NCBI GenBank assembly: GCA_035620375.1
Contig: DASPGX010000028.1
Span: 2,974-66,973, forward strand
From: Minisyncoccota bacterium
GTDB lineage: Bacteria > Patescibacteriota > Minisyncoccia > 2-02-FULL-40-12 > GWA2-44-9
Reading direction: 5' to 3'
DNA length: 64,000 nt
The notes under the pieces were generated by a model that searched no databases, had not been told where the DNA came from, and was given only the letters and a program-made list of their open reading frames with translations. The position numbers were made by a program, and so were the translations under genes. This document shows, piece after piece, positions 9,839 to 41,866 of the stretch. The stretch's first letter is position 1. Each line of letters opens with the position of its first letter.

Positions 9839-9865
9839 ATAGCCAATCAGTTCCATTCCTATTAA

Positions 9866-11364
<1,499 letters not shown>

Positions 11365-15665: not shown

Positions 15666-15721
15666 TGCGAAATTGGTTATGATGTCCTAATACGAGGACT
15701 ATCGTAGCAAAACGTCGGCCC

Positions 15722-16351
15722 GTGAGAATACCCCACAAGACATTGGAACGCAGCCTGCTGAGCGGGGGTTACCGCTCGGTCATCGGCGTGGATGAGGTCG
15801 GCATGGCGTGTCTTGCCGGTCCGGTGACCGTTTGCGCGGTCATGCTGGGCCCGGAGTTTTTCCGGAGCCGCCACGACGGCCTCCGGGGACTGCGCGACTC
15901 AAAGCTGCTCAGGCCGCATCAGCGCGAGGCCTATGCCGCCGAGCTGAAGCGGGAGCCGTCATTGCGGTTCTGTATCGCAAGCGCCATGCCCCGCACGATA
16001 GACCGGCTGAACATCTTCTGGGCCGCCCGTCTGGCGATGCGCCGCGCCGTCCGCCGGCTCGCCGGGCCGGACGACGGGTGCATGGTGCTGGTGGACGGCA
16101 ATCTTCCGGTCCGGGGACTGGGGATGGAGCAGCTGCCGGTCGTGAAAGGGGACCGGAAAGTCTTCACCATCGCATGCGCGTCCGTCATCGCCAAGGTTCA
16201 CCGTGACGGACTGATGACCCGCTACGCCCGCCGGTATCCCGGATACGGATTTGAGGTGCATAAAGGGTATCCGACGCGCATGCACCGTGAACGGCTTGCG
16301 GCGCTCGGCGCGACGGAATTGCATCGCAGGACATTTAGTGGTATAATATAA
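15722..16351 (+). CDS. rnhB: Ribonuclease HII
   Basis: VIGVDEVGMACLAGPV DE(A/V)G active-site block, later D and RYPGYG/HKGYPT motifs. Confidence 0.85.
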   Translation: MRIPHKTLERSLLSGGYRSVIGVDEVGMACLAGPVTVCAVMLGPEFFRSRHDGLRGLRDSKLLRPHQREAYAAELKREPSLRFCIASAMPRTIDRLNIFWAARLAMRRAVRRLAGPDDGCMVLVDGNLPVRGLGMEQLPVVKGDRKVFTIACASVIAKVHRDGLMTRYARRYPGYGFEVHKGYPTRMHRERLAALGATELHRRTFSGII

Positions 16352-16381
16352 AATCGTTCATCAACAGCGGAGGGTCTCGGG

Positions 16382-17170: not shown

Positions 17171-17238
17171 GGGCGCTTTCTTTTTTCGGAAACGGAGGCT
17201 ATCATCCCGAAAGCGTCTTAAATCCATAGGGAGGCCGG

Positions 17239-22728: not shown

Positions 22729-22800
22729 TGGGCGGCATAGGAATCGAACCTATGACCTCTGTCTTATCAGGACAGCGTTCTACCACTGAACTAGCCGCCC
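22729..22800 (-). tRNA. tRNA-Ile (anticodon GAU)
   Basis: Reverse complement folds as a cloverleaf: acceptor GGGCGGC/GCCGCCC, anticodon loop CUGAUAA, T-loop TTCGATT, discriminator A. No encoded CCA. Confidence 0.85.
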
Positions 22801-22890: not shown

Positions 22891-22963
22891 GGGCCCGTAG
22901 CTTAGTTGGTAGAGCGCCTCATTTGCAATGAGGAGGTCACCGGTTCGAATCCGGTCGGGTCCA
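22891..22963 (+). tRNA. tRNA-Ala (anticodon UGC)
   Basis: Cloverleaf with the G3:U70 alanine identity pair, anticodon loop TTTGCAA, T-loop TTCGAAT, discriminator A. No encoded CCA. Followed by the hairpin gcccgcc-tctgac-ggcgggt. Confidence 0.85.
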
Positions 22964-27927: not shown

Positions 27928-29717
27928 GGATTCAGGGGAACGGTAATACCCTGCCAGTCAGCGATAACGGGAACCTCCGCATTGTAATCGGAGAAACCGG
28001 ACTTTGTGACGGTGAGCGTGTACGTATCATTGGCAAGGCCGCTGAAGAACGCGTTTCCGCCGGGCAGGCATCCGGCGCGGTAGGTGATGCCGACCGCTTC
28101 CAGAGAGGGAGTGGCGTCCTGGTCCAGCGTCCGCATTTCTACCCGGTACCGGAGATAGCGGTTACCGTTGTGCAATGTGGGAAGGTTTCCGCCGGCGCCG
28201 GTATAGAAGGTTGCCGGAGTGCCGTCGGGCCCCGCATAGACCCAGGTAGCGTTGTCGTTGTTCGTGGCAATCTGGAGCCGGACGCTGTCGGTTCCGGTTT
28301 CGGACGGCTGGGACGACGGCGTCATGCCGGCCGAGAAGAATGAGATGCTCGCCGTCCCGAAATCGACGGTTTCCGATTCCAGCCACGCATAGCTTCCCGT
28401 TGCGTGGGGCCCGCCGGGCGGAATGAGCGTAAGTACGCCCGCAGAGGCGGTGTATATTCCGCCGCTCTGCTGGCTGAACTGGCCGCCGCTCCAGTCGCTT
28501 TGGGACCAGGTATTGCGTCCGCTGACGACCGTGACGTCGTACGCGCCGCTGGCAAGGCGCACCGCCGCGTCGTTTAACGGTGTGCCGCCCGGGCCGGTAA
28601 CCGTGACGAGCAGTGACGAGGGGTCCTTCGGCGCCATCAGCCAGGTGACCGCAAGTGACGAACCCGGATTAAGGGTGAACGGCGAGGGATGGCTGGTCCC
28701 GGCGATATCCCACGAAGCGTCCGTGGATCGGGCCGTGAAACTGTCCCATTCCAGCGGTGAGACCGACACGGTGCCGCCGGCGCCGGTCTGGTGCGAAACG
28801 GAGTATTTGGGGATATCCGGAGCGGAGCCGATGAGTTTGGAACCGGTCAGGAGAAAGTCAACGCCTGGTACGGTGCCGCACACCGCGCTCCGCGAGGTGA
28901 AGGCGACGTCACCCGTTACGTCGATGGAAAACGTCGCCACGGTCAGCTGCTCCGCAACGATGGTCAGGTCGGGCTTTGCGGGGTTCGGGTTCGAAGGCTC
29001 GCCGGGCGGATACGTGCGGTCCGTAGAGTAGCCCGCCTTGGTGACGGTCACCCGGTAGCCCGCGGAATCGGTCGCCAGGCCAATGAGCTGAAGGAGGCCG
29101 TCCGCATCCGAAGTGTCCGTGATGTTGACGGCGGGGGTCACTCCCGTGTTGGTGACCGTGATGGTCGCACCCGGCAGTGCGATACCCGAGCCGTCCAGAA
29201 CGCGCACCAGGAGGTACCCGGTCTTCGACGGGTCTTCCAGGTTGCGCGGAGCCAATGTCGTGGTCATCCGGATATCCGAGAACCGCGGGCATGAGGCACA
29301 CAAGATGCGCAGTTCGATGATTTTGTAGTCCGCCGGGTCGGTATCGCCCGGGGTGCCGTCCAGGAGGCCATCGAAGGGGTCGTCAATGTTCCTGACCGTC
29401 GTTTCGACGGTGAACGGCACGCCGCCCACGGTGACCGCCTTGGACGGCGGAAGCAGTCCGGGCGGCACGCCGCCGACCGTGCCGACGTCCTCGTAGCGCA
29501 TATTTCTGATAATCTCCACCTCGGATTCTATGATGTTTGCCGCCGTCGCGTGGTATTGTCCCGCAGTCACGATGTCGAGCGTGTTGCTGTACGACAGATA
29601 CAACCCCGAAGAAACAATGACCAGGATGGTCATGCCGATGAGCGTTTCCAGCAACGTAAAACCGGCCGGGACGCATCCGGCTTTTGTGCGGCCGTCCGTC
29701 GGTGCAAGTTTTCTCAT
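27924..29717 (-). CDS. Giant minor pilin (597 aa) with prepilin-type N-terminus
   Basis: AGFTLLETLIGMTILVIVSSGLYLSY followed by ~550 aa of beta-rich, T/S/G-rich extracellular domain. Confidence 0.6.
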   Translation of the reverse strand: MRKLAPTDGRTKAGCVPAGFTLLETLIGMTILVIVSSGLYLSYSNTLDIVTAGQYHATAANIIESEVEIIRNMRYEDVGTVGGVPPGLLPPSKAVTVGGVPFTVETTVRNIDDPFDGLLDGTPGDTDPADYKIIELRILCASCPRFSDIRMTTTLAPRNLEDPSKTGYLLVRVLDGSGIALPGATITVTNTGVTPAVNITDTSDADGLLQLIGLATDSAGYRVTVTKAGYSTDRTYPPGEPSNPNPAKPDLTIVAEQLTVATFSIDVTGDVAFTSRSAVCGTVPGVDFLLTGSKLIGSAPDIPKYSVSHQTGAGGTVSVSPLEWDSFTARSTDASWDIAGTSHPSPFTLNPGSSLAVTWLMAPKDPSSLLVTVTGPGGTPLNDAAVRLASGAYDVTVVSGRNTWSQSDWSGGQFSQQSGGIYTASAGVLTLIPPGGPHATGSYAWLESETVDFGTASISFFSAGMTPSSQPSETGTDSVRLQIATNNDNATWVYAGPDGTPATFYTGAGGNLPTLHNGNRYLRYRVEMRTLDQDATPSLEAVGITYRAGCLPGGNAFFSGLANDTYTLTVTKSGFSDYNAEVPVIADWQGITVPLNP

Positions 29718-30826
29718 CGTCCGAGTGACTGACTGATTTTGTAGATTGGCGTGATGATGGAAATGGCGACGAAACTTACGACCAATCCCATGGCCAGAAG
29801 CAGGAGCGGTTCCAGGATGTTGCTCATGGTCTTCGTCGCACCGTCCAGCTCGGACTCATAAAATGTTGCGAGGAATTCGAAGGTCTCGTCCAGCTTTCCC
29901 GTGCTTTCGCCGACGTTTGCCATTTGCGAGAACGTCGGCGGGAAGAATTCCGGACGTTCGATCATCAGCTTGCTCATCGTCTGACCCTGCTGGACCTCCT
30001 TCGCGATATCCTCCATCTGCTGCTGGTAGACCAGGTTCGTCAGCGACCGTCCGGAAATATTGATTGCTTCCACGATGCGGACGCCGCCTTTCAGAAGCAG
30101 GTTCATGGTGCGGGCCACGGTTATGATGTTGACGTCCATCACCATTGAGCCCACGAGGGGCATCCGGGTGAGCGAGCGGTGCCAGGCGAACCGGACCGCG
30201 CGTATGCGGAGCAGGAACATCCAGCCGATGCCCAGCACAACCAGTCCCAGAATCACCCAGAGGCCGTTGGCAATCATGAATTCGGAGAACGCGATGAATA
30301 TCCGCGTGGTCAGCGGAAGTTCCACATTGAGCGAGTTGAGCACGGGAAGGATGCGCGGAAAAATGAAGAACGTCATGATTCCCGTGATGCCGAACGTCGC
30401 CACGAGGATGACGATGGGGTAGACCATCGCGCCGACGACTTTCTTCTGCAGTTCCGCCTTCTTTTCCAGTTCCTGGGCAAGGTATTTGAAGTTCTCCGAC
30501 AATGTGCCGGACGTTTCACCGACCCGGACCAAGTTGATGATGAAATCGCCGAACACCTGCTTGTACCGTTCCATGCCGACCGAGAGGTAGTGGCCGTTCT
30601 TCACGTCGGCTATGAGGCTGTCCAGCACCTTCAGGAACGGACGGGACTTGGTCTGCTTCCGGAGAATTTCCAGCGATTCCAAAACCTGAAGTCCCGAGCG
30701 CGTCATCATCTCCATATGGCGCGCAAACAGCATCTTGTCTTTCAGGGACAGCCTGAAGAACAGGCTGCTGAAACCGCCCAGACTGCCGCCCTCGGTTTTC
30801 GGGGGTGTTTCGGTTCCGTTACTCAT
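29714..30826 (-). CDS. pilC: Type IV pilus assembly platform protein PilC (GspF family)
   Basis: Two T2SSF repeats and three TM segments. Overlaps both neighbours. Confidence 0.85.
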   Translation of the reverse strand: MSNGTETPPKTEGGSLGGFSSLFFRLSLKDKMLFARHMEMMTRSGLQVLESLEILRKQTKSRPFLKVLDSLIADVKNGHYLSVGMERYKQVFGDFIINLVRVGETSGTLSENFKYLAQELEKKAELQKKVVGAMVYPIVILVATFGITGIMTFFIFPRILPVLNSLNVELPLTTRIFIAFSEFMIANGLWVILGLVVLGIGWMFLLRIRAVRFAWHRSLTRMPLVGSMVMDVNIITVARTMNLLLKGGVRIVEAINISGRSLTNLVYQQQMEDIAKEVQQGQTMSKLMIERPEFFPPTFSQMANVGESTGKLDETFEFLATFYESELDGATKTMSNILEPLLLLAMGLVVSFVAISIITPIYKISQSLGR

Positions 30827-32570
30827 GAATGACGCGGAGGATTTCTTCGATGGTCGTCAGTCCCTTCAGCGCTTTCTGGAACCCGTCTTCCAGAAGCGTG
30901 GTCATGCCGTTCTTGATGGCGATTTTCTTGATTTCGCTCGCGTCGGCGTGGCGCATGATGGCTTCGCGGATGAAATCGTTGACCTCCAGGATTTCATAGA
31001 TGCCCATCCGGCCCTTGTACCCCGTATGACCGCACATGTCGCAGCCCTTGCCGATGTAGAAGTCGCGGTGGTCATCAAGGATTTCCGGGGTCAGGGAATC
31101 CTTCAGCGACATGAACTCTCCTTCGGTAATGCGCCGCGGCTCCTTGCAGTTCTCGCAAATCATGCGCACCAGCCGCTGGCCCATCGCCACGTTCACCGTG
31201 GATGCGACCAGGAACGGCTCGACGCCCATATCCAACAGGCGCGGCAACGTCGTTGCGGCGTCGTTCGTGTGCAGGGTGGACAGGAGCTTGTGGCCCGTCA
31301 GAGCCGCGTTGACGGCGATGGACGCCGTCTCTTCGTCGCGGATTTCGCCGACCATGATGATGTTCGGGTCCTGCCGGAGGATTGAACGCAGGCCGGCGGC
31401 GAACGTCAGTCCGGTGCGGTTGTTCACCTGAATCTGGTCGATGCCCTCCAGGGAGTACTCGATGGGGTCTTCAATCGTGATGATGGACACTTCGCGCGTG
31501 GAGAGTTCCTTGAGGATGGTGTACAGCGTCGTCGTTTTTCCGGAGCCGGTCGGTCCCGTCGCCAGAATCATGCCGTACGGCGTCTTCACCGCCTTGCGGA
31601 CCTTTTTCCGGTCGGCCTCGCTCAACGCCACGTCGTCCAGCGAATTGAGCTTGGTCTGTTCGGCCAGGAGCCGCAGGACTGCGTTCTCGCCGTAGTAGGT
31701 CGGGACGATGCTGACGCGGACGTCGAACTGCCGGTCGGAGTCCTGCATGCTGATGCGGAACCGGCCGTCCTGTGCCGCCTGGTGTTCGTCGGTCCGCATC
31801 GCACCCAGGACTTTGATGCGGGAGATGATGCCCGGATGGATGCCCTTGGGGAACGTGAACGAATCGCGCAGGATGCCGTCGATACGCAGGCGCGCGAGGA
31901 GGTTTTCTTCGGTCGGCTCAAGATGAATATCCGAAGCACGCGTGAGGAACGCGTATCCCATGAGCGTGTCCACGAGCGCGATAATCGATATCTCGGCTTC
32001 CGGCTTCGTGACAATCTGCTGAATCCGGTCTTTGAGGTCCTGAATCTGTTTGGGGTCCGCTCCCGCGACGTCCGACAAATCTTTGGGCTCCTTCGCGGAA
32101 GCCTTCGCTTTTCCGTTCCGTGCGGATTTCTTCGCGGGTTCCGTTTCGGGGGGCGCGGCCGGCGCCGGTCCGCCTCCTTTGGCCAGCCGCTGTGCCTCGG
32201 CGACGATATCGGAAACGGTGATGTCCCGCTTGACCATCACGGACTCAATGCCGCACGTTTGCGCCCGTTTGCGTTCGTTCTCGTCGTCCTTGTCGAACAG
32301 TACCAGCGCGGGGATGTGCCTCTCCTTTCTGGCGTCTTCGACGAGCTTGCAGTAGTCACCGCCCTCGTGGAGCGGAACGTCCACGACCAGCGCGTCCGGC
32401 GCGTTCTTCTTGAGCATCTGGCGCGCCTCATCGTCGGACGATGCGTGCGACGCCTCAAGCTCCGCCTTCTTGAGGCGTTCCATGAGCAGTTGTGCCATGA
32501 AAAAATTGTCCTCAACGAGGAGGACCCGTCTGCCGCCCGTAGTAGTAGTCCCGTTCTTCCGTGCCGACAT
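30819..32570 (-). CDS. pilB: Type IV pilus assembly ATPase PilB/GspE with N-terminal receiver (REC)-like domain
   Basis: Walker A GPTGSGKTTT, Asp box, His box and tetracysteine CxxC...CxxC (CENC...CDMC). The first ~120 aa (RRVLLVEDN...LVVDV...VMVKRD) resemble a CheY-like receiver. Confidence 0.85.
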   Translation of the reverse strand: MSARKNGTTTTGGRRVLLVEDNFFMAQLLMERLKKAELEASHASSDDEARQMLKKNAPDALVVDVPLHEGGDYCKLVEDARKERHIPALVLFDKDDENERKRAQTCGIESVMVKRDITVSDIVAEAQRLAKGGGPAPAAPPETEPAKKSARNGKAKASAKEPKDLSDVAGADPKQIQDLKDRIQQIVTKPEAEISIIALVDTLMGYAFLTRASDIHLEPTEENLLARLRIDGILRDSFTFPKGIHPGIISRIKVLGAMRTDEHQAAQDGRFRISMQDSDRQFDVRVSIVPTYYGENAVLRLLAEQTKLNSLDDVALSEADRKKVRKAVKTPYGMILATGPTGSGKTTTLYTILKELSTREVSIITIEDPIEYSLEGIDQIQVNNRTGLTFAAGLRSILRQDPNIIMVGEIRDEETASIAVNAALTGHKLLSTLHTNDAATTLPRLLDMGVEPFLVASTVNVAMGQRLVRMICENCKEPRRITEGEFMSLKDSLTPEILDDHRDFYIGKGCDMCGHTGYKGRMGIYEILEVNDFIREAIMRHADASEIKKIAIKNGMTTLLEDGFQKALKGLTTIEEILRVIHE

Positions 32571-32587
32571 GTTCCCTCCTTGGGAGG

Positions 32588-32977
32588 TCAGGCACCGACG
32601 AGCTCTTTAATCCGTCCGACGATGACGCTCAGGTCATCGGTCTTACGGATGTGGCCCAGGGCACCGATCTCCTTGGCGTACTTTTCGTCAATCCACGCGT
32701 TCTCGACCTCCTCTTCGCCGTAATTCGTCAGAAAGACTACCTTGATGTCGCGGAGGTTCTCGTCCGCCTTCATCGCCGAAACGGCCTCGACGCCGTTCAT
32801 GACCGGCATCTTTACGTCCATGATGACCAGGTCCGGTCGGTCCTTCTGGAGCATGTCCAGCGCCTGTTTGCCGTCCGCGGCTTCCCGTATCTCAAAACCC
32901 GCACCTTCAAGCTTGGCGCGGATGATGGTGCGCAGGTCCGCTTCGTCGTCCACGATGAGGATTTTCGCCGTTGCCAT
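32588..32977 (-). CDS. Stand-alone response-regulator receiver domain protein (CheY-like)
   Basis: KILIVDDEADLRTII...DLVIMDVKMPVMNG...VVFLTNYG...K has the canonical REC Asp/Thr/Lys positions. The ORF-track start at 33166 is an upstream extension. Confidence 0.75.
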   Translation of the reverse strand: MATAKILIVDDEADLRTIIRAKLEGAGFEIREAADGKQALDMLQKDRPDLVIMDVKMPVMNGVEAVSAMKADENLRDIKVVFLTNYGEEEVENAWIDEKYAKEIGALGHIRKTDDLSVIVGRIKELVGA

Positions 32978-33014
32978 TAGTGTAAGTATATCATACGCCC
33001 CGGGTTTGGCGCGC

Positions 33015-34652
33015 CTATGCGGCAGGGATAACGATGGTGAATACGCTGCCTTTGCCGGGACCCTCGGATGCGGCAGTAATGGTGCCCTGGTGGGCCAGTA
33101 CAATCTGCTTGGCGATATAGAGGCCAAGGCCCGTGCCCTCAATGCGCTTTGCAGCGTCCCGTTCACGGGTGAACTGCTCGAACAGCTGCGGGAGGAGGTC
33201 CGCCGGCATTCCGCGGCCGCTGTCGGACACGATGACGAAAATGTCGCTGCCGCGCCGCTCCGCGGCGACCTTCACCCACCCGGTCTCCGTGTACTTGATG
33301 GAATTGTCCACGAGATTCTGGATGACCTGCCGGAATTTTTCGGTGTCCAGCATGGCGTTCAGCTCGTCGTGTTCCGGCGTTTCATGCCGGAGTTCAAGAT
33401 TCTTACGCTCGGCGAGGGGCAACAGGTCGTTGACCACCTGCGTGACGAGGTTGGACATACTGACGCGGTCGAACGCGAACTGCATCCGGCCCTCCTCAAT
33501 GCGCCGGAGGTCCAGGAGGTTGTTCACCAGCGCAATCAGCCGGTCGGCCGATTCCTTGATTTTGCCCACCATTTCCGTGACCTTCTCCGGCACCGTGCCG
33601 TAGGTGCCGTCGCCGATGAGCTGGGCATAGCCCTTCACGACGCTCATCGGCGCCTTTACCTGGTGCGAGGCGAACGAAAGGAATTCGGAGCGGATGCGGT
33701 CCAGGCGCTTGAGCTTGATGTTCGCGTCCGTCAGCTCCCGGGTCATCTGTTCAAGGTGCTCCCGCTGGGATACCTCGCTGATGACGCTGCGGATGAGCAG
33801 GATGCCGAATGCCAGCACGAACGAGAACGTGCCGATGCGGATGAGCAGCGTGCCGACGTTGTCCGTCACGACAATCTCAGCGAGCAGTATTGCGCTGAGC
33901 ACGAAGGTCAGCAGCTCCGCGGCGATGGCTTTGACGTTCAGGAACTGGTACCGGCGGATGGCATGGGACGTGGCGAGGATGATGGGAAGGAAGAAAATGG
34001 GCGCGAGCGGGACGAATAGCAGCATGTCGAATGCCACGGGCAGAATGAGGTTGAACGTCAGGATGAGCAGGAATGTCAGCGCGGCGCCGGCGAGGATGAT
34101 TCTGGCCTGCGCCCGCTCAAGCGTCGCAGGTCCACCGGTACGCCGTACAAGCATCACGATACCGGCGACGACGAACACGGCCGCAACCATCCCGAATACG
34201 GGCAATGCCGGTCCGCGAATCGGGTCGGTCACGCCGCTCACGGCGACCGAGTCGACGCGCTCAAAGATGAACCGTGAAAGCGTCAGCAGGGAAGTCAGGA
34301 CCGCAGCGGGAAGCGCGACGAATTTGTACCATCGCGGGAAGGTGATTTCGGCGCGCGGAAAGATGTAGAACAGCGTGAAGAAGCTGAACGCGTGCCAGGT
34401 TGCGGTGAACAGCGTCAGCCGCAGAAGCCAGAGCACCTGCCACGGCTCCTGGACCTGGTAATTCAGGTAATTGAACGTGCCGTACGCGACCGTGGCCAGC
34501 GCGAAGACGAGGAATGCCCGGTTCGTGGCATTGCTGCGGTCGCTGAAATAGACCGCGAACCCCATAATGCCGATTGCCGCCACCGCGATGGCGATGGCGA
34601 TGAGGTCCAAATGGCGCAAGCCCGCCAGGAGGTCGGTGATGGCGAATTCCAT
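33015..34652 (-). CDS. Sensor histidine kinase with N-terminal multi-TM (7TM-type) sensor domain
   Basis: ~7 predicted TM helices in the first 300 aa, then the HisKA H-box SFASHQVKAP and HATPase_c N/G1/G2 boxes (NLVDNSIKYT, DSGRGM, GTGLGL). Confidence 0.8.
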   Translation of the reverse strand: MEFAITDLLAGLRHLDLIAIAIAVAAIGIMGFAVYFSDRSNATNRAFLVFALATVAYGTFNYLNYQVQEPWQVLWLLRLTLFTATWHAFSFFTLFYIFPRAEITFPRWYKFVALPAAVLTSLLTLSRFIFERVDSVAVSGVTDPIRGPALPVFGMVAAVFVVAGIVMLVRRTGGPATLERAQARIILAGAALTFLLILTFNLILPVAFDMLLFVPLAPIFFLPIILATSHAIRRYQFLNVKAIAAELLTFVLSAILLAEIVVTDNVGTLLIRIGTFSFVLAFGILLIRSVISEVSQREHLEQMTRELTDANIKLKRLDRIRSEFLSFASHQVKAPMSVVKGYAQLIGDGTYGTVPEKVTEMVGKIKESADRLIALVNNLLDLRRIEEGRMQFAFDRVSMSNLVTQVVNDLLPLAERKNLELRHETPEHDELNAMLDTEKFRQVIQNLVDNSIKYTETGWVKVAAERRGSDIFVIVSDSGRGMPADLLPQLFEQFTRERDAAKRIEGTGLGLYIAKQIVLAHQGTITAASEGPGKGSVFTIVIPAA

Positions 34653-34655
34653 AGT

Positions 34656-35762
34656 TCAGGCCGAGCGGTCGCCGGCGGGGCGTACGTCGGGCTCAAGTCG
34701 CGGCGTCCGTGCGCTCGGCTCGTCCGCGTGACCGATGCGGAACATGAATGCCAGAACGCCATCGGATAACTTAAGAACGGATGCGAGGCGGGCGTAAGCG
34801 TCCGCGACAATTGACGCATGGCGCTCGGCCAGGGTCCGGTCGCCGTCCGCAACGCGGTTCATCAGCAGGGGAATTCCCGTCAGTGGCTGCAGGTGCAGTC
34901 CCATGGATGTTACGGAGAGCCATACGCGTTCGAAGAGACGCCCCGCGGCGACATACTGGGTCGTATCTCGGTTGGGGATGACGATTGCGCCCATAGCCGC
35001 GCCGGTCATATAGATGCCGCCGTTCGTTTTCGCGACCATGGATGACAGGCCGACCGCATTGAGCGCGCGCAGTGCGGGAAAATGCCTGAATACGGCGAAT
35101 CCTGCGCGCACCGGCGGAGGAAGCTCAAACGTCTTGATGGAGAATCCGAGTTTTCGTGCTGCGTCCTGCTCATCCGTCCAGTTGATGTGCGAAAAGAAGA
35201 ACCGGTGCATGTTCCGGTCTTCGAACAGGACACGCTCGTTCAGCGCCAACAGGTTGCCCAGTTCCTGACGGCGCGCCGTATCGGTTACCAGAATAAGCTG
35301 CGGTCCGCTTTCGGCCGTCTTCATCAGTGCGTCATGTTGGACCGCGGTCAGCTCGGCGTTGCGGTACGGACGTCGGTTCGTCGCACGCTTCCAGATGGAC
35401 TCGTAGAGCGGATGCGCGGCCTGGGTCGCGCGCTCCAGATACGCCCGGGCAATCCAGTCAGGATCACTGGGGGTCGGCAGGACCTTCGCGGAAAGCCGGT
35501 AGCCACGCTGCGCGGCGGCAATGGACATGTTTTCCAGGACCGCGCCGTTGGCGATATACGAGGGCCGCTGCCCCCAGCTGTAGAGGGAATTGTCCCGCTC
35601 GGGAAGATTGAAGACGTCGATGAAACCGGGTCCGACTTCAAACCGCCATGGCTGGCAGTTGTCGCCCGATGGAGCCATCGTACCCGCGGTGATGATGTGC
35701 AGGACATCCTCATCGAGCGTCGGCGGCTTCTGGCTCATCATTGTCTTTAGTATATCACGCAT
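34656..35762 (-). CDS. Nitroreductase-family (FMN) oxidoreductase, long form
   Basis: APSGDNCQPWRF nitroreductase signature near the N-terminus. About 370 aa, so probably tandem/extended nitroreductase folds. GGAAG RBS upstream of the ATG at 35762; the ORF-track start at 35924 would overlap the upstream gene by 100 nt. Confidence 0.7.
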   Translation of the reverse strand: MRDILKTMMSQKPPTLDEDVLHIITAGTMAPSGDNCQPWRFEVGPGFIDVFNLPERDNSLYSWGQRPSYIANGAVLENMSIAAAQRGYRLSAKVLPTPSDPDWIARAYLERATQAAHPLYESIWKRATNRRPYRNAELTAVQHDALMKTAESGPQLILVTDTARRQELGNLLALNERVLFEDRNMHRFFFSHINWTDEQDAARKLGFSIKTFELPPPVRAGFAVFRHFPALRALNAVGLSSMVAKTNGGIYMTGAAMGAIVIPNRDTTQYVAAGRLFERVWLSVTSMGLHLQPLTGIPLLMNRVADGDRTLAERHASIVADAYARLASVLKLSDGVLAFMFRIGHADEPSARTPRLEPDVRPAGDRSA

Positions 35763-35824
35763 GCTGGTCTTCCGTGCCGCGTTCATACACAGAAGAAACC
35801 CCGCGTTGTGCGGGGTTTCGGGAC

Positions 35825-36988
35825 TCAGATGCCGAGTTTCGTCTTGAGCATGTCGGCGAGGCGTTTCCGTTCGCGGACCGCGATGTCCGAGGAATAGCCG
35901 GGGTCCAGGTTTTCGTCCAGACACAGGTGGTACCGTCCGCTTGGCATGGCGTCGCCCGCAACGATCCCCCTGATGAGATAGGTGACGGCGGATGCGCCTA
36001 TGAGCGCAGTGCCACCGAGCTGCGGAACGGATACGAGTGTTTCCCCGATGGCGGGAAGCGAACGTATCATGCGTACCGGATGATGCTCGGCGCCGATAAG
36101 CCGGGCGATGGTCCTTATCGTTTCCTGTTTATTCCCCCGCAACGCTGAAAAGCGGGCGACGTCGGTTGTGCCCAGCCGCCCGAGGAAATAGGGCGTACGG
36201 CCCAGGTCGTGCCGCTCAACGTCAATGGTGCTCCGGTCGCCGTTGTCGGCCGCTGACAACAGCGGTATGCGCTGCTTCCGGGCGAGTTCGCGCAGACGCT
36301 GTTTGATGACGAAGTCGTCCATTTCGTCCACGACGACATCCAGTCCGCGCATGAACGAAGCGACGTTCGTTGCATTCAGTCCGCGGTCGAAAATGCCCAC
36401 ATGGGCGTAGGGGTTTATTTCCCAGATCCGGCGCGCGATGACGGTGGTCTTCGGAAGGCCGAGCTGGTGGACTCCCGCGATGAGGCGGTTCGTGTTGGAC
36501 AGTTCGAGCTCGTCGAAATCGGCAAGGCGGATGCGCCGGGCTCCGCCGGCAAGCACCACGGAAAGTGCAACGTTGCTGCCCACAGACAGTCCGGCGACAC
36601 CGACGACCGTGTCATAAAACTTCTTCTGTTCCGCGAAGGTGATAAGATTCGCGTTTCTGCTGGTACGGACCCGGTTGAACTCGGGTTCCGCAAGTACGTG
36701 CACAAGGGTGTTCAGCCACGGATAGTGCACCCATCGTCCCTGGCGGATCAGAGGTCCGCGTCGGGTCCGTCCGGCGATGAATGCACCGACGGCTTCGGCA
36801 ATCTTTTCCTTCGGAAGCCGGATGAGCCCCGGCTGTTCGACGAGCGCGAGTTCCGCCAGCTGACCGGCGTACGTGTCGACGATTCCCGGTTTCCGGAGTC
36901 CGGAACGCAGGCGTCCGAACGCGCGCCACGAAGCGGCGGCGGCGGGATTGAATATCTTCGGTTGTTCCCGTTTCTCCATGAGGTTCAT
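35825..36988 (-). CDS. E1-like (ThiF/MoeB/HesA family) protein with N-terminal ~120-aa extension and degenerate nucleotide loop
   Basis: VVGVAGLSVGSNVALSVVLAGGARRIRLADFDELELSNTNR matches the ThiF Rossmann plus D-x-D ... SNLNRQ block, but GxGxxG is degenerate (GVAGLSVG). Confidence 0.65.
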   Translation of the reverse strand: MNLMEKREQPKIFNPAAAASWRAFGRLRSGLRKPGIVDTYAGQLAELALVEQPGLIRLPKEKIAEAVGAFIAGRTRRGPLIRQGRWVHYPWLNTLVHVLAEPEFNRVRTSRNANLITFAEQKKFYDTVVGVAGLSVGSNVALSVVLAGGARRIRLADFDELELSNTNRLIAGVHQLGLPKTTVIARRIWEINPYAHVGIFDRGLNATNVASFMRGLDVVVDEMDDFVIKQRLRELARKQRIPLLSAADNGDRSTIDVERHDLGRTPYFLGRLGTTDVARFSALRGNKQETIRTIARLIGAEHHPVRMIRSLPAIGETLVSVPQLGGTALIGASAVTYLIRGIVAGDAMPSGRYHLCLDENLDPGYSSDIAVRERKRLADMLKTKLGI

Positions 36989-38520
36989 TCCTTGATAAGG
37001 TACTTCGGCTTAAGTCCCGGGCGGAAATGCTCCGGGTCCTGGTAGTTTTTCAGAATCACCCTCGGGGTCAAATCTTTGCCGAGATGGTTCCAGAGAAAGT
37101 CGTATTCCATGTTGATTCTGCGCAGCACTCCGACGACATGCCGCGAAAGCGCGCGGGCGAGTGACGCGGCCGGCCGCTTGCCGGGCTGAAGTTCAATGTT
37201 GAGCTCAAGGAAGGCCTCATGTTTACGGTCGTATCCCTTGCGCAGGGCGAACTTCCCGGTGATGTCGCCGAGGAATTTCTCCGCGTTCAGCGCCGCATGG
37301 ACGTGCTCGGGATAGATGTTCGCGGCATAGAATACGAGAGTATGGTCGCTGCGCCCTTTGAGCGCAATGAACGGCAGTTTCCACGAACCGGCCGGCACAG
37401 TACGGCCGGATTTCCGCAGCGCCGCAACACCGTCGGCATATGGGATAACGGTTCCCGCGTCGTGGAGGTTGAACCGGATGAGCGGAATACCGCTGTCGGA
37501 GGTGAACAACAGTTCCCCGTTCAGCCGGGCGACATGGCGGAGCAACGGATTGTACTGGAACAGGTTCGGTACGGTCGCGGAAGCGAAGAGGTTCCCGCAC
37601 AATTCCGGGTCGGCCGATGCGGCACGGCGGAGGGCGACGGTCAGCGGCGTTTCGTGGCCGATGAGCAACGTCTCCGACGAACCGTACGTGTTCATGGCCG
37701 CGACCGCGTCGGCCGCAAGACCCGCGGCGCGGTTCAGATACGAACGCCAGGCCTCACTGAATCCTTCACTGCAAAAAAGCATCCGGAGGCCCGACTTCCG
37801 CCAGGAGAGGCCTGCGCGCTTGCCGGACTCCACGACGTCTTTCACGAAGAACGGATGTCCGATGAGCAGGACCTGGTCATAGTTGCGCCGGAGTTTGCCG
37901 ATGACGTTGAGCGCCTGGTCCTTGTTGTTTCCGACGCTCACGGCGGTAAGCGGATAGCCGCGCTGGGCCGTGAGCCATGTCGGCAGGAGCGTGGCAACGC
38001 CGGAAACATAGACGCCCATCGGAAAGCCGATGACGGCGAGCGTGGATTTGCGGTGGATGCCGAACAGCGTCCGGTAGGCGAGTTCATGAATGAGCGTCGC
38101 CTCCATTTCCTGGCGCTGGCCCCGGGGCCAGAACTTCGGTTCGCCGCTCGTACCCGAGCTCACCGCGATGAGCGATGCGTTCCGGAGTTTTCCGTCCCAG
38201 CACCGCGCCGCCAGCGGATACCGGTTCACATAGTTTGCCTTGTCGGTGAAGGGCACGCCGTCCAGGTCGGCGGCAGTACGTACGGCACGACCGTTGATGC
38301 GGTGCCGCCGGAGGAAGTCGCGGTACGCCGGGACGCGTTCGGCCGCGGCATGGAAGAGGGCGAGCGCGCGGCGGTCGCCCTGGCGCACCCACCGCCCGGG
38401 CGCATCGCGGCGGAGCGATGACTCCATCGCCGCAATGTCCGTGCGCCAATAGTCCGCGATGCCGGCGCGGAACAGAGGCGCTGCCGCGAGCGTGTTCCAG
38501 GTGTCCCGTTTCGTACTCAT
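36985..38520 (-). CDS. Adenylate-forming enzyme, GH3-like / PaaK(F390-synthetase)-like acyl-AMP ligase
   Basis: SSGTSGEPKFWPRG P-loop-like adenylation motif. At 511 aa it is closer to GH3-type amido synthetases than to PaaK. 4-nt overlaps with both neighbours. Confidence 0.6.
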   Translation of the reverse strand: MSTKRDTWNTLAAAPLFRAGIADYWRTDIAAMESSLRRDAPGRWVRQGDRRALALFHAAAERVPAYRDFLRRHRINGRAVRTAADLDGVPFTDKANYVNRYPLAARCWDGKLRNASLIAVSSGTSGEPKFWPRGQRQEMEATLIHELAYRTLFGIHRKSTLAVIGFPMGVYVSGVATLLPTWLTAQRGYPLTAVSVGNNKDQALNVIGKLRRNYDQVLLIGHPFFVKDVVESGKRAGLSWRKSGLRMLFCSEGFSEAWRSYLNRAAGLAADAVAAMNTYGSSETLLIGHETPLTVALRRAASADPELCGNLFASATVPNLFQYNPLLRHVARLNGELLFTSDSGIPLIRFNLHDAGTVIPYADGVAALRKSGRTVPAGSWKLPFIALKGRSDHTLVFYAANIYPEHVHAALNAEKFLGDITGKFALRKGYDRKHEAFLELNIELQPGKRPAASLARALSRHVVGVLRRINMEYDFLWNHLGKDLTPRVILKNYQDPEHFRPGLKPKYLIKE

Positions 38521-40121
38521 CCGGAAAAGAGTGGGGATATGCGCGGGGTACGCCAGGCGACATCCAGACCTGCGCCGGCCCTGATGAGGTCGGTGACCGC
38601 GGGGAGCTCATCCACCAGAACCCGGTCTTTGGTGACCGCGGGGAATACACGGCGCACGGCGCGGTACAATTCCGACGCCGCGGGCGAAAGCCGCCGCGTC
38701 GCCCGCATGACGTCGGTCGCCTGGGCGAGCGTGATGAGTTCCACGGCGCACAGGATGCGCAGGTCCTCGGCCGTTTTCATCGTCAGCAGTGCCGAGTCGG
38801 TGCCCATACTCACGACGTCCTGGTTGTCGGCATTCGTGGACATGGAGTGAACGCGGTGCGGATACGCCATGGACTGGGCGTGTGACGCGGTGGAGGTCGC
38901 CACGAACTGCAGGCCCTGCAGGGAAAGGTTCAGGCCGGCGGTCGCCAGATTCAGAAACGGCGGCAATCTTCGGTTCACGTTCCGGTTCAGGAAGAAATTA
39001 ATCTGTCGCTCCGCCAGCAGCGTCAGTTTCGCCATCGCCGCGCGGAGTTCGTCGGCAGCCTGTGCGACGTATTCGCCGTGAAAGTTCCCGCCGTGCAGGA
39101 ATTTTCCCGACACCGGGTCCACGATGGGATTGTCGGTAACGGAGTTTATCTCCGTCTCAACCGTCTCCCGGGAGCGGGCCAACACGTCCAGCGACGGGCC
39201 GACAATCTGGGGGATACACCGGAAGGAATAGATTTCCTGCACGTCCTCGTCGATGAACCGTGTCGCTTCCGTGATGCGGTGCTTGCGTTGGAAAGCCTCG
39301 CGCTGCTTGATGAGCCGGGAGCCGGCGGTGAGTTCGCGCAGGGCAAGGCCGACGGTCAGCTGGCCGCGGTGCGGACGCAGTTCGTGCAGGCGTTCGGACA
39401 GTCCGTCCGCGAACGCGCCGATGAGTTCCAGAGCCCAGGCGCCCGAGCGGACGGCGACCGAGAGCAGGCGGTCGGCGTCGCGGCAGGCGACCGCCATGAT
39501 GCCGGCCATGAACGAAGTGCCGTTGATGACCGCGAGCCCGTCGCGCGGGATGAGGCGGTACGGCTCAAGTCCCGCAAGTTTCAGTGCCCGCGCGGCCGGC
39601 ATGCGTTCATCGCGGTACCGCACATGCCCCTCACCGATAAGCGCCAGTCCGACATGCGCGAGCTGTACGAGGTCGCCGCTCGTGCCCACGGCCCCGTGTT
39701 CGGGAACTTCGGGAATGATGCGGTGGTTGATGACCGCCGCGAGCGCGTGCAACAGCTCGGCGGAGACCCCCGACATGCCGCGGGCAAGCGTGTTGAGCCT
39801 GACCAGCATGGCGGCAAGCACCAACGGGTCCGGCACCGGCGCGCCCATGCCGACCGCGTGGCTCCGGATGAGGTTCGTCTGCAACTCCGTCAGCGCTTTG
39901 CGGGAAATGAGGTGCGAGGCCATCGGTCCGAATCCCGTGTTCACGCCGTAGATGACTTTGCTGGTCAGGTTCTTCTCCAGCATCATCCGGCTTTCCTGCG
40001 TCCGCGCAAAAACATCGTCGTCAATAACCGCCGACATTTTCGGGTCGGCGACAAATGCCCAGATGCGCCTGATGTCCAGGTCGCCGCCGGTGATGAGCAA
40101 TGTGCGCGGCATGTTGTGCAC
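38517..40121 (-). CDS. Aromatic amino-acid ammonia-lyase/aminomutase (HAL/PAL/TAL family, MIO cofactor; T-S-G triad variant)
   Basis: GVNTGFG, the MIO-forming GTSGDLVQLAH (TSG rather than ASG), NGTSFMAG and SVTDNP blocks. Confidence 0.8.
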   Translation of the reverse strand: MHNMPRTLLITGGDLDIRRIWAFVADPKMSAVIDDDVFARTQESRMMLEKNLTSKVIYGVNTGFGPMASHLISRKALTELQTNLIRSHAVGMGAPVPDPLVLAAMLVRLNTLARGMSGVSAELLHALAAVINHRIIPEVPEHGAVGTSGDLVQLAHVGLALIGEGHVRYRDERMPAARALKLAGLEPYRLIPRDGLAVINGTSFMAGIMAVACRDADRLLSVAVRSGAWALELIGAFADGLSERLHELRPHRGQLTVGLALRELTAGSRLIKQREAFQRKHRITEATRFIDEDVQEIYSFRCIPQIVGPSLDVLARSRETVETEINSVTDNPIVDPVSGKFLHGGNFHGEYVAQAADELRAAMAKLTLLAERQINFFLNRNVNRRLPPFLNLATAGLNLSLQGLQFVATSTASHAQSMAYPHRVHSMSTNADNQDVVSMGTDSALLTMKTAEDLRILCAVELITLAQATDVMRATRRLSPAASELYRAVRRVFPAVTKDRVLVDELPAVTDLIRAGAGLDVAWRTPRISPLFSG

Positions 40122-40185
40122 TCATTGTATCGGAATCGGTGATAGAATGATTGTGTATTACGTATTCACTCATTCGTTCATCGTT

Positions 40186-40602
40186 ATGACATACGACGTA
40201 GCAATCAATATATGGACCGTGGTCGGCGCCGCGGCCGCGAGTTTCGTGGTCGGCATGCTCTGGTACGGTCCGGTCTTCGGAAAAACCTGGATGAAGCTCT
40301 CGGGGATTTCCCGGGCGGACATGAAATCCATGCCGTTGACTCCCGTGCAGGCCATGGTGGGCGGCGCGGTTACGGCCCTGCTGATGGCCTATGTGCTCGC
40401 CTGGCTGGCGCAAGCCCTGATTCTGCTTTCGGCGAGTGACGCGATGCGGATGGCGTTCTGGCTCTGGCTCGGATTCTTCGTCCCGCTGACCGCGGGTTCG
40501 TGGTTGTGGGAGGGCAAGCCGTTGAGGCTCTTCCTTTTTAACGCTGCGCATTGGCTTGTCGCGCTCTCGGCGATGAGCTACGTCGTCGTCCGCTGGATGT
40601 AG
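40186..40602 (+). CDS. DUF1761-like small membrane protein (divergent from the biosynthetic operon)
   Basis: MTYDVAINIWTVVGAAAASFVVGMLWYGPVFGKTW and ~4 TM helices. The long ORF-track version (from 39952) is an unlikely extension. Confidence 0.45.
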   Translation: MTYDVAINIWTVVGAAAASFVVGMLWYGPVFGKTWMKLSGISRADMKSMPLTPVQAMVGGAVTALLMAYVLAWLAQALILLSASDAMRMAFWLWLGFFVPLTAGSWLWEGKPLRLFLFNAAHWLVALSAMSYVVVRWM

Positions 40603-40717
40603 GATTCCGGCCGCAAGATCATCACCCCGGTTCCGTACGGAGCCGGGGTGATTGGTATATGAAACGGTCAGCGCCCTGCGGTTTCCATGAGAAACAGATA
40701 TACCAACATGGCAAGTT

Positions 40718-41257
40718 TTGTCGTTTTCGGCCTGTGATAGGATTGAGGCGATGGACCCGAAGGATACAGAACCGTTCCCGTTGTCCCCGGAACCCGGTCG
40801 TTCCGTAATCCGGCACGGCTCCGGAGACATCACGAGCATAGAGGAAAAGACCGAGGACGAGTTTGTGCGCTACGACGAGCGGATGAAGCTCTGGGGCTGG
40901 CTCTCCAGGGAATTCGGGGCGAAGTGGGAGATGATGAGCCAGCAGCAGCGGGAGGCGACCGTCCAGAAATACATCGTCACCATCATTGAAGAACTCAAGG
41001 CCATGGCCGGCGGACTGTGGGACCAGCTCTCTCCGGAAAATAAGCGTGAGTTGTTCCACGCCCGCTTCATTGACCGCACCGCGCCTCCGGTACCCGTCCG
41101 TCCCGCAAAGCCGCCGGTCCGGAAGGCGGGCCCTGAAGGGAAAACCGAACACCGCGCGACGGGATTCGTGGATTGGGTCGCGCGGAACGCCGGCCGTCTT
41201 CCGGCGGACTGGGGAGAACGGAGAAAGATGTATCTTGAAGAAACGGGCGGTGAGTAA
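40718..41257 (+). CDS. Hypothetical protein
   Basis: Balanced composition (W/Y/K/E present). The antisense 403-aa ORF is L/R/H-rich and rejected. The start may be the ATG at 40751. Confidence 0.4.
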   Translation: MSFSACDRIEAMDPKDTEPFPLSPEPGRSVIRHGSGDITSIEEKTEDEFVRYDERMKLWGWLSREFGAKWEMMSQQQREATVQKYIVTIIEELKAMAGGLWDQLSPENKRELFHARFIDRTAPPVPVRPAKPPVRKAGPEGKTEHRATGFVDWVARNAGRLPADWGERRKMYLEETGGE

Positions 41258-41272
41258 TAACCAATTCTCATT

Positions 41273-41866
41273 ATGAGCGAATCGAACCGCGAGCCGGCAA
41301 TACGCAGGGAGATGGGCGGCCACGAGGATTACGGTGCCTATGAGCGCAAGGTGCGCCAGGAAATGTGGGAGCAGTACAAGGACATGTTGCGCGAGCTTCC
41401 CACTCATGACGACCGTGAGGAGGCGGTTCGGAAGCTGGCCAAGCAGGAGATGGCGCGCCGGGCGAGCGCGAAGGTGAAGGCCGAGAGCCGGGAACCGGAA
41501 CCGGCCGGGAAAAAGACGGAACAGGGTCCGGCCCCCGCCGCATCCGTGGAGAAGCCCCTGGGAATCCTGGATGCCGGTCCGTGGCTCAAATGGGACGACG
41601 TCGTCTATGCCGAGGGCAAGTTCCACGTGTTCACGTCGGAATTCGTCCCTGCGCTTGTTGAGGCGCTCGGTGAACTGTCCAGCGACATGCAGGTGCGCAC
41701 GCGCCAGATGAACATGATACGCAATCTGTATCAGGGCAAGCTGTTCCGCATGTACGCGAACCAGTATCCCGACCGTCCGGCGGACGAGTTGCGCGAGAAC
41801 GTGCAGGGATGGCTGGACGAGCGGTGGGAGCAAACGCTTGCCGCCGCGCGGCGCCTGGCGTCATAG
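41273..41866 (+). CDS. Hypothetical protein
   Basis: 197-aa ORF with plausible composition and a charged N-terminal half. No motif recognised. Confidence 0.4.
   Translation: MSESNREPAIRREMGGHEDYGAYERKVRQEMWEQYKDMLRELPTHDDREEAVRKLAKQEMARRASAKVKAESREPEPAGKKTEQGPAPAASVEKPLGILDAGPWLKWDDVVYAEGKFHVFTSEFVPALVEALGELSSDMQVRTRQMNMIRNLYQGKLFRMYANQYPDRPADELRENVQGWLDERWEQTLAAARRLAS

Follow-up and report, generated by a model that had tools for sequence, protein, structure and literature searches.

A five-gene module of Patescibacteria that pairs predicted oxazolone-type biosynthetic enzymes with a membrane sensor kinase

The subject of this work is a 64,000-nucleotide stretch of contig DASPGX010000028.1 from a Minisyncoccota bacterium, referred to as the window, in which five close-packed minus-strand genes run from position 40121 down to 33015 and encode, in this order, a lyase of the 4-methylideneimidazole-5-one (MIO) type, a PaaK-like ligase, a ThiF-like protein, a flavoenzyme and a histidine kinase. 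In our judgement it is an evenly balanced proposition that these genes form a module whose product is a small aromatic molecule, built from nothing but amino acids and ATP, and which is functionally tied to the kinase. Chemistry of the oxazolone type is the part of this proposal that we hold to be probable, and a signalling role for the product is given an even prospect at best. The ThiF-like protein and the flavoenzyme are, on the evidence of their sequences, a split version of the oxazolone synthetases Rv1355c/TrzS, OxzB and TyzB/TyzC. The five genes are as follows.

38517..40121, minus strand: MIO aromatic amino-acid ammonia-lyase, probably a tyrosine ammonia-lyase (TAL); PF00221; likely ATG at 40112, giving 531 amino acids (aa)
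36985..38520, minus strand: divergent PaaK-family (ANL superfamily) adenylate-forming ligase of 511 aa, assigned by a predicted-fold match
35825..36988, minus strand: predicted ThiF-like ATP-dependent cyclase of 387 aa (the public gene call has 384 aa), matching the N-terminal half of NF005901
34656..35786, minus strand: nitroreductase-superfamily flavoenzyme (flavin-dependent oxidoreductase, FDO); the open reading frame (ORF) spans 34656-35924, with ATG 35786 as the most likely start, giving 376 aa
33015..34652, minus strand: sensor histidine kinase with an N-terminal HisKA_7TM membrane domain; Pfam HisKA_7TM, HisKA and HATPase_c

The lyase/ligase and ligase/ThiF junctions are overlaps of 4 nucleotides (nt), the genes being translationally coupled, and the kinase starts only 3 nt past the flavoenzyme stop. 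A first-pass annotation, made from the sequence of the window, had read the first four ORFs as an operon-like minus-strand cassette of an MIO ammonia-lyase or aminomutase, a GH3-like or PaaK-like adenylating enzyme, an E1 (ThiF)-like protein and a nitroreductase; the placement of the four ORFs, the operon-like arrangement and the four gene identities (MIO lyase, PaaK-type ligase, ThiF, nitroreductase superfamily) are all borne out, as is its observation that YcaO, non-ribosomal peptide synthetase and polyketide synthase genes are absent.

Conservation and variants of the module

The cassette is not peculiar to the window. A ligase-alignment scan of species-representative genomes gave 45 loci, and a metagenome scan gave 455 relatives, of which the best 80 were kept; after the removal of duplicates the cassette recurs in 105 distinct loci, so that the conservation across related genomes which had been put forward as a check is indeed found. 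With one or two exceptions the 45 genome loci carry a Patescibacteria label (Doudna-, Kaiser- and Lloydbacteria, Paceibacterota, Parcubacteria). Directly upstream of the ligase, an MIO lyase is encoded in 70 and an amino-acid dehydrogenase in four of the 80 loci with at least 1.7 kb of upstream sequence, and among the 55 loci with at least 5.5 kb downstream the ThiF gene is present in 52, the flavoenzyme gene in 48 and the histidine kinase gene in 44. All five genes are found in 36 of the 52 loci having both flanks. The gene order is constant (ligase, ThiF, flavoenzyme, seven-transmembrane (7TM) histidine kinase), and in the loci compared the ligase always adjoins ThiF and a lyase or dehydrogenase. 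As the module has been kept across many Parcubacteria lineages it probably does something important for them.

The first enzyme is the variable component. At L052, L118/L119, L123, L124 and L132 (loci are cited by their survey numbers) an ELFV-family dehydrogenase stands in place of the lyase and is followed by a diverged PaaK-like ligase (29-38% identity), ThiF, flavoenzyme and kinase; the L052 dehydrogenase, the one that was scanned, has the tryptophan dehydrogenase ScyB as its best NCBIfam match (277 bits). The lyases themselves fall into three subtypes, namely TAL-like (the window type), histidine ammonia-lyase (HAL)-like with an A-S-G triad (L055-L057) and phenylalanine ammonia-lyase (PAL)-like (L121). 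The L121 enzyme has Phe-Leu where the window lyase has Ser-His, a position which we take to be the substrate-selectivity switch of RsTAL (His89) and of PALs. Judged by their families, each of these non-orthologous first enzymes would make a carboxylic acid out of an aromatic amino acid, and a variable first enzyme followed by a fixed order of ligase, ThiF, flavoenzyme and kinase is as expected if the first enzyme feeds an acid to the ligase.

Further components recur in parts of the distribution. Several loci have a class I S-adenosylmethionine (SAM) methyltransferase gene inserted after that of the flavoenzyme and before that of the kinase, and others encode a second protein resembling a methyltransferase. 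In about 14 of the 45 genome loci, about a third, the module is flanked by regulators consisting of a receiver domain (REC) alone, and apart from a TrmB-like protein in four loci no DNA-binding regulator recurs. ORF clustering of the 45 genome loci revealed no recurring acyltransferase family, and one weak GNAT-like query gave no tblastn match in the 80 metagenome loci. An acyltransferase partner was therefore not found at the loci, the remainder of each genome not having been searched, and it is the PaaK-like ligase that occupies the partner position.

Several loci depart from the common pattern in ways of their own. At L055 (11760-13007, minus strand) an MsbA-like ABC exporter half-transporter is encoded between the flavoenzyme and a methyltransferase-kinase pair, and is a possible exporter of the product. 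L011 carries, at 15206-17482 and about 4 kb downstream of a complete first copy, a second and diverged PaaK-like/ThiF pair (33% and 45% identity, respectively), so that the module is duplicated within one genome. L034 (DATDHK010000034.1), from a metagenome-assembled genome labelled Bryobacteraceae (Acidobacteriota), has a lyase-ligase pair with no ThiF, flavoenzyme or kinase downstream, and is either a mis-binned contig of the candidate phyla radiation (CPR) or a transferred fragment. A tryptophanyl-tRNA synthetase gene is found near the module, usually past the kinase, at L016, L018, L019, L030, L032, L036 and L037, which may reflect clade synteny or may hint at the acceptor amino acid.

The enzymes and the chemistry they suggest

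The assignment of the ThiF-flavoenzyme pair rests on complementary matches to one family model. The ThiF-like protein matches PF00899 (E = 1.3e-22) and, at 297 bits, the Rv1355c family model NF005901, its residues 7-367 covering model positions 10-345, compared with at most 79 bits for the other ThiF/MoeB-type models of NCBIfam. For the flavoenzyme PF00881 scores 29 bits and the NCBIfam matches are much stronger, these being NF011424 (193 bits), NF005901 (181 bits, model positions 368-713) and the Acg-family FMN oxidoreductase (142 bits); Acg (2ymv) is its only clear solved relative and its closest structure. The two proteins thus represent complementary halves of the Rv1355c model, with a rough sum of 478 bits (297 + 181) to be set against a cut-off of 476 bits which was fixed for the fused protein and which neither split half alone is able to reach. 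Fusions of ThiF and flavoenzyme, 726-747 aa in length, occur inside the same module at L009, L032 and L038, and a nitroreductase-superfamily FDO is accordingly found either beside ThiF or fused to it.

Rv1355c is TrzS, and its Mycobacterium smegmatis homologue catalyses in vitro an ATP-dependent cyclisation followed by an O2-dependent desaturation, thereby converting N-acyl-tryptophan to tryptazolone (PMC12856293). The split TyzB/TyzC and the fused OxzB perform the same chemistry on N-acyl-tyrosine or N-acyl-phenylalanine (PMC10404671; bioRxiv 10.1101/2020.06.11.147165). According to a 2025 review no ThiF-like enzyme other than OxzB is known to have a small molecule as its substrate, and TcdA is the ThiF-like enzyme that closes the oxazolone ring of cyclic N6-threonylcarbamoyladenosine (ct6A) (PMC12596934). 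In every described system the pair is accompanied by an N-acyltransferase that uses acyl-CoA, be it OxzA, TyzA, TrzA or NasY (PMC12479983). The flavoenzyme of the module is, by this family relationship, the proposed C-alpha/C-beta desaturase.

The ATP site of the ThiF adenylation domain appears intact. R108, G130, S132, G134, D154, D156, N162, N164, R165 and K177 are invariant among 78 relatives, and E219 and D221 are kept in at least 90% of them. The glycine loop, which had been described as degenerate, is G-L-S-V-G, a variant that is invariant within the family, and every ATP-site residue is kept; that description consequently falls away. Among solved proteins the nearest in sequence is TcdA, the ct6A dehydratase that forms an oxazolone, and the AlphaFold (AF2) model of the ThiF-like protein has a mean confidence (pLDDT) of 96. 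The best structural match of this model is PDB 9egb, AclA of Tenacibaculum discolor, released in 2025 and described as 'in complex with substrate'; no paper on AclA was found in the open-access literature and bioRxiv, and its substrate might be informative for the ThiF family.

The ligase is divergent by family models, and was assigned by its predicted fold. The 511-aa protein has no Pfam match at E <= 0.01, GH3 (PF03321) included, and reaches 47 bits with the PaaK model TIGR02155 (cut-off 646) and only 15.8 bits with the FlxY model. Its AF2 model, built from 88 relatives, has a pLDDT of 93.3 and matches PaaK1 (2y27) in Foldseek (E = 1.5e-23), the TM-score being 0.68 by the query and 0.81 by the target. 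Further matches of the PaaK family are NatL2, the 'PaaK family AMP-ligase' 6six (of the same release as NatL2), AjiA1 and ClxA; NatL2, AjiA1 and ClxA match with E = 1e-14 to 1e-20 at 13-19% identity. By their PDB titles NatL2 was solved with two molecules of salicylic acid and ClxA with 3-amino-4-hydroxybenzoate and its adenylate. We take these three enzymes to belong to the nataxazole (NatL2), AJI9561 (AjiA1) and closoxazole (ClxA) benzoxazole pathways, and presumably they join an aryl acyl-adenylate straight to an amine or hydroxyl, with no coenzyme A (CoA) involved.

The motif SSGTSGEPKF had been read as GH3-like or PaaK-like. The motif is there, with S121, S122, G123, T124 and G126 invariant in the 88 relatives together with K504, and the ligase has, besides a two-domain PaaK-type ANL fold, both the P-loop motif and the catalytic lysine of the C-terminus, in line with the PaaK half of that reading and its PaaK1 match. 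The GH3 half does not hold: no GH3 structure is among the 50 best Foldseek matches of the model, and an identity as GH3 acyl-acid amido synthetase was rejected on the missing PF03321 match and the predicted PaaK fold. The score is below the PaaK equivalog level, and no paa genes are present at any of the 45 genome loci. We infer that the ligase joins the lyase product to an amino acid.

The lyase matches PF00221 with E = 1.9e-152 over model positions 1-465 of 466. The T-S-G form of the MIO-forming triad reported by the first-pass annotation is confirmed as T147-S148-G149 (GAVGTSGD) and is invariant in 42 relatives, as are Y58, H88, N200, Y298 and R301, which identifies an MIO lyase. Among NCBIfam models the TAL of flexirubin biosynthesis, FlxA, scores best (540 bits, cut-off 700), followed by the HAL subfamily (438 bits), the HutH equivalog (432 bits, cut-off 539), D-beta-phenylalanine mutase (382 bits) and tyrosine 2,3-mutase (349 bits, cut-off 501). 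The enzyme lies below every equivalog cut-off and so belongs to neither the FlxA nor the HutH equivalog. In residue alignments to solved structures its 'LIRSHAVG' and 'NADNQDVVSMG' correspond to 'LVRSHSAG' and 'NGDNQDVVSMG' of SgTAM, 'R-S-H' and 'NxDNQDVVSMG' being invariant or near-invariant in the 42 relatives. The same position reads 'NQEDHVSMG' in HAL, with an extra glutamate that is absent from the window lyase, and 'INAVATNVG' in AdmH, a phenylalanine mutase that is the second-best solved match of the lyase (288 bits). This glutamate is presumably Glu414 of the Pseudomonas putida enzyme, for which recognition of the imidazole ring is reported. The motifs shared with SgTAM and the missing HAL glutamate make L-tyrosine the most likely substrate. 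An ordinary HutH within a hut operon, which would have undone the cassette reading, was rejected, given the score under the cut-off, the missing HAL glutamate and the different context.

The pathway that we propose would begin with the conversion of L-tyrosine to p-coumarate by the MIO lyase, an enzyme whose family is firmly placed and whose substrate is suggested by its active-site motifs. The PaaK-like ligase would then form coumaroyl-AMP and transfer the acyl group to an acceptor amino acid, probably aromatic, at its alpha-amino group, to give an N-(arylacryloyl)-amino acid, a step that would replace the acyl-CoA-dependent N-acyltransferase of the known oxazolone pathways. By homology to TrzS, TyzB, OxzB and TcdA, the ThiF-like enzyme would adenylate the carboxylate, the amide oxygen thereupon closing a 5(4H)-oxazolone, and the flavoenzyme would add a C-alpha/C-beta double bond, yielding a conjugated arylidene-oxazolone or, after hydrolysis, an N-acyl-dehydroamino acid. 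A SAM methyltransferase may methylate the product in some lineages. The product, likely hydrophobic and membrane-partitioning, would be sensed by the polytopic kinase, and the kinase would in turn phosphorylate a REC-only regulator, in this genome possibly a REC-PilB fusion; synteny is what points to these last two steps. The first of two biochemical readings offered previously, namely deamination, adenylation, amide formation and redox tailoring, is essentially what the evidence favours. Such a pathway would need only amino acids, ATP, flavin mononucleotide (FMN) and an electron acceptor. CPR organisms, as far as is known, mostly lack fatty-acid and CoA metabolism, and a pathway with these few requirements would suit organisms poor in them.

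The kinase as a candidate receptor, and competing explanations

The histidine kinase is a conserved fifth member of the module and its proposed receptor. The cassette had been noted as lying directly upstream of, and co-directional with, a sensor kinase and a pilus locus; the position is correct, and the kinase is more than a neighbour, the biosynthetic genes being conserved beside a polytopic sensor kinase in 44 of 55 loci (with all five genes in 36 of 52). The pilus locus, on the other hand, adjoins the module in a few lineages only and is not its regular partner. REC-PilB is adjacent in the window and its three close relatives L004, L021 and L043, other forms being found at L047 and L121, and the locus was therefore rejected as a part of the module and is at most a lineage-specific output.

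Sensor coupling extends to more distant ThiF relatives (34-39% identity), in which a sensor protein is encoded immediately downstream in six of eight contexts, the exceptions being L050 and L053. ThiF relatives are followed by 7TM kinases at L047, L048, L051, L052 and on one JGI contig (a 729-aa kinase). At L048 (8001-13117) and L051 (7001-12507), both Gram-negative metagenome contigs, a ThiF-like protein of 34-35% identity opens a conserved module of another kind, which continues with a small protein (of 232 or 270 aa, and weakly GNAT-like in L048), a 7TMR-DISM histidine kinase and then a REC-histidine kinase hybrid, has a divergent REC gene upstream and contains no flavoenzyme; this looks like a sister system with an acyltransferase in place of the ligase. 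L049 (5618-11830), a mycolate-type contig that carries TtfA, has genes for a 263-aa protein and a P450 ahead of that for a fused ThiF-FDO (654 aa), and the gene that comes next, encoding a GAF-GGDEF-EAL protein, overlaps the stop of the fusion; this is the trzAS/Rv1354c arrangement with an extra P450. In M. tuberculosis trzAS likewise adjoins genes for cyclic di-GMP, and oxazolones have been likened to signalling molecules and a possible signalling role raised (PMC12856293). At L050 a 525-aa neighbour of a fused ThiF-FDO was considered as a ligase and discarded, as it is not PaaK-like.

A broader generalisation can be put forward tentatively, and we regard it as rather unlikely in its full extent: CPR bacteria, small-genomed and host-attached, may carry dedicated signalling in which aromatic oxazolones or N-arylacyl-dehydroamino acids serve as autoinducer-like ligands of the co-encoded 7TM kinase, the acid varying between coumaroyl, cinnamoyl and arylpyruvoyl forms and the type IV pilus being the output in some, with the mycobacterial and proteobacterial oxazolones likewise being signals read by adjacent sensors.

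A number of points weigh against the reading of the module as a signal-producing oxazolone pathway. The amide-forming role of the ligase is drawn from the absence of an acyltransferase and from the CoA-free coupling presumed for other PaaK-family enzymes, and the ligase could be a CoA ligase paired with an unlinked transferase, just as the lyase could be an aminomutase. The characterised FDOs use O2 (PMC10404671, PMC12856293), and many of the contigs are groundwater metagenomes by contig name. L047 (Gottesmanbacteria) encodes no more of the module than the ligase, ThiF and a HisKA_7TM-GAF kinase, flanked by pilus genes, and it and a few other loci are without both lyase and FDO, so that an unsaturated oxazolone may not be the end point of the core chemistry in every case. 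The link to the kinase is one of synteny, and a kinase serving something else would give the same synteny; its membrane domain has no invariant lysine or cysteine, a word-based search with the sensor domain, of low sensitivity, matched only four proteins, and the one context seen, that of a Taylorbacteria kinase (26% identity) encoded away from the module, is too distant to inform. Pilus genes, a conceivable output, adjoin the module in few lineages only.

Of the alternatives the one that survives best, which we nevertheless hold to be unlikely, retains the same chemistry for a product that is no signal, be it a pigment or antioxidant, an antimicrobial against hosts or competitors, or an azlactone that acylates its targets, with a kinase that is stress-responsive or has an unrelated output. 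Oxazolones have reported associations with oxidative stress, with antibiotic induction and with antimicrobial N-acyl tyrosines (PMC12856293, PMC10404671), and a coumaroyl-arylidene-oxazolone would by chemical reasoning be strongly conjugated and electrophilic; nor does the module have a recurring DNA-binding regulator other than the TrmB-like protein of four loci. A pigment or toxin would, however, not be expected to show so tight and wide a coupling to a polytopic kinase (44 of 55 loci) and REC-only regulators, and the coupling to sensors is seen also with different partner enzymes in other phyla.

Modification of a protein or peptide is quite improbable. The system would be one of peptides made on the ribosome and modified after translation (RiPPs), or would place a p-coumarate chromophore, as in photoactive yellow protein (PYP), on a protein that is possibly the kinase, with ThiF activating a protein C-terminus. 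Most characterised ThiF-like enzymes outside primary metabolism do act on peptides (PMC12596934), and the first-pass annotation had likened the N-terminal extension of the ThiF-like protein to a peptide-binding RiPP recognition element (RRE). TAL and a coumarate ligase also constitute the chromophore supply of PYP, their genes often lying in one operon with photoreceptor kinases and REC-only regulators, a parallel that we count in favour of such modification. The RRE interpretation finds no support in the extension itself, which is about 105 aa in length and has a beta-alpha-beta-alpha-alpha-alpha-beta-beta-alpha topology in the model: the N-terminal 106 aa have no Pfam match at E <= 0.1, no RRE or PqqD signature was found in them, and a search for precursor peptides in and around the module yielded no conserved short ORF. 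MccB and PaaA, which share the adenylation domain and the possession of an N-terminal extension, align over 263-271 of 384 ThiF columns, that is over the adenylation domain only and the same span as plain ThiF. Unlike theirs, the extension of the module has no RRE signature or structural match, and the module has no precursor peptide. The extension lies instead inside the match to the model of Rv1355c (TrzS), a small-molecule enzyme. The acid moreover varies, the first enzyme being PAL-type or a dehydrogenase in places, the kinase membrane domain has no invariant cysteine or lysine, and many contigs come from groundwater, which is presumably dark and ill suited to a photoreceptor.

That the MIO enzyme is a 2,3-aminomutase, supplying a beta-amino acid for activation and cyclisation, is very improbable. 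The pocket motifs are common to SgTAM, and AdmH is the second-best solved match (288 bits), but the 540 bits of FlxA compare with 349 for tyrosine 2,3-mutase and 382 for phenylalanine mutase, and the PAL-type lyase or dehydrogenase encoded elsewhere at the same position removes the amino group and does not move it. The slightest chance is left to aromatic amino-acid catabolism or salvage, with a PaaK-type CoA ligase making the acyl-CoA, ThiF and nitroreductase unrelated or redox helpers, and the kinase sensing the substrate, for although JGI labels the ligase a phenylacetate-CoA ligase and its fold is that of PaaK, TIGR02155 gives 47 bits where its cut-off is 646, there are no catabolic genes that recur downstream, the ThiF/FDO pair is of a biosynthetic family and fused in places, and some loci add a tailoring methyltransferase. 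An anti-phage E1/Cap2 system was also considered and rejected, PADLOC returning only generic E1-domain matches of at most 50 bits compared with the 297 bits of the Rv1355c family.

Relation to known systems and genomic setting

The module, taken as an oxazolone-type pathway coupled to a kinase, resembles OxzAB of Pseudoalteromonas rubra, TyzACB and TrzAS (Rv1356c/Rv1355c of M. tuberculosis) in its combination of a ThiF cyclase with a nitroreductase-superfamily FDO, the two being neighbours as in TyzB/TyzC or a single fusion as in OxzB and TrzS, in its substrates derived from aromatic amino acids and, as regards the M. tuberculosis cluster, in the signalling genes nearby. Its optional methyltransferase parallels the clusters of methyltransferase, ThiF and nitroreductase that make stieleriacines (PMC12479983), the thalassotalic and kyonggic acid clusters being alike; all of these clusters also contain an N-acyl amino acid synthase (NAS). 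It differs from the oxazolone systems in having no OxzA, TyzA, TrzA or NasY, synthases that draw on acyl-CoA or acyl-ACP, the aryl acid apparently being made on the spot and activated by a PaaK-like enzyme without fatty acyl-CoA, and also in being Patescibacterial and nearly always accompanied by a 7TM histidine kinase. The succession of a TAL-like lyase and an adenylating enzyme for its product is shared with FlxA/FlxY of flexirubin biosynthesis and with TAL/pCL of PYP, but the module lacks polyketide or aryl-polyene machinery and a PYP gene, and the acid is proposed to end in an amide and not a thioester. NatL2, AjiA1 and ClxA have the PaaK fold in common with the window ligase but are no closer to it than PaaK is; the ligase is about 80 residues longer, and the substrates would differ.

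As regards gene architecture, CqsA/CqsS, LuxM/LuxN, agrBDCA and comQXPA each encode a signal synthase together with a polytopic receptor kinase and a regulator. The module would share this architecture by analogy, with synthesis enzymes that differ from lineage to lineage within a constant layout; there is no sequence relationship to any of them, the class of signal would be new, and the module is known from its genes.

The ThiF/flavoenzyme chemistry is therefore known, and what is new is the supply of substrate by a lyase or dehydrogenase and a PaaK-like ligase, the host group, and the near-obligate coupling to a 7TM kinase. The gene combination had been thought undescribed; this does not apply to the ThiF/nitroreductase pair, which is a known oxazolone synthetase, but it stands for the remainder, as no description of the module was found among the top-ranked open-access papers and bioRxiv entries for CPR with oxazolone or tyrazolone and for ammonia-lyase or phenylacetate-CoA ligase in combination with Patescibacteria. 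It was only in 2020-2021 that the oxazolone synthetase pair came to light, and we know of no function for its products. If the proposed pathway is correct, it would be a second entry to oxazolones, one that is independent of acyl-CoA and combines an amino-acid-derived aryl acid with an ATP-dependent ligase, and it would give a new class of product with both halves derived from amino acids. The repeated occurrence of the ThiF family beside sensor kinases and GGDEF-EAL proteins would furnish the first broad comparative support for oxazolones as signals, and with the module kinase as a concrete receptor candidate the function of oxazolones becomes a testable question.

Adjoining and internal features of the locus in the window are the following.

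32588..32977, minus strand: single-domain, REC-only response regulator; PF00072, E = 2.5e-23; 129 aa in the public gene call
30819..32570, minus strand: PilB-like type IV pilus assembly ATPase with an N-terminal receiver; Response_reg at residues 16-115 (36 bits), T2SSE at residues 194-579 (E = 2.9e-119)
35795..35819, minus strand: G+C-rich hairpin of 10 pairs, GAAACCCCGC-ACAAC-GCGGGGTTTC, in the ThiF-flavoenzyme intergenic gap of 38 nt

The gap that holds the hairpin is the sole real intergenic gap inside the operon. The hairpin is the top-scoring terminator-like site within 29000-41000, albeit with a weak T-tail, and it may set stoichiometry or mRNA stability and not the end of transcription; in the promoter and terminator scan, which covered 29000-41000 for terminator-like sites, counts were no higher than chance. 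Past REC-PilB, on the same side, lie PilC and then pilin-like genes. The window PilB has its receiver (residues 16-115) instead of the usual MshEN-type N-terminus, the same fusion being found in L004, L021 and L043, and the domain composition suggests a direct control of pilus assembly by phosphorylation.

The divergent genes upstream of the module encode a DUF1761 protein, two hypothetical proteins and RmuC. They were ruled out as module members by their poor recurrence, RmuC being kept in three close relatives only, and DUF1761 and the two hypothetical genes in no other locus. Elsewhere in the window a complete 16S rRNA gene is present at 9860-11362 (plus strand), with no 23S or 5S gene within the 64 kb, and the rRNA genes are thus unlinked. 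Two tRNA genes lie at 22729-22800 (minus strand) and 22891-22963 (plus strand). The Arg/His-rich, low-complexity ORFs at 40622-41833 (minus strand, 403 aa) and 37219-38421 (plus strand, 400 aa) lie antisense to genuine genes; they are no genes themselves, and are products of the high G+C content.

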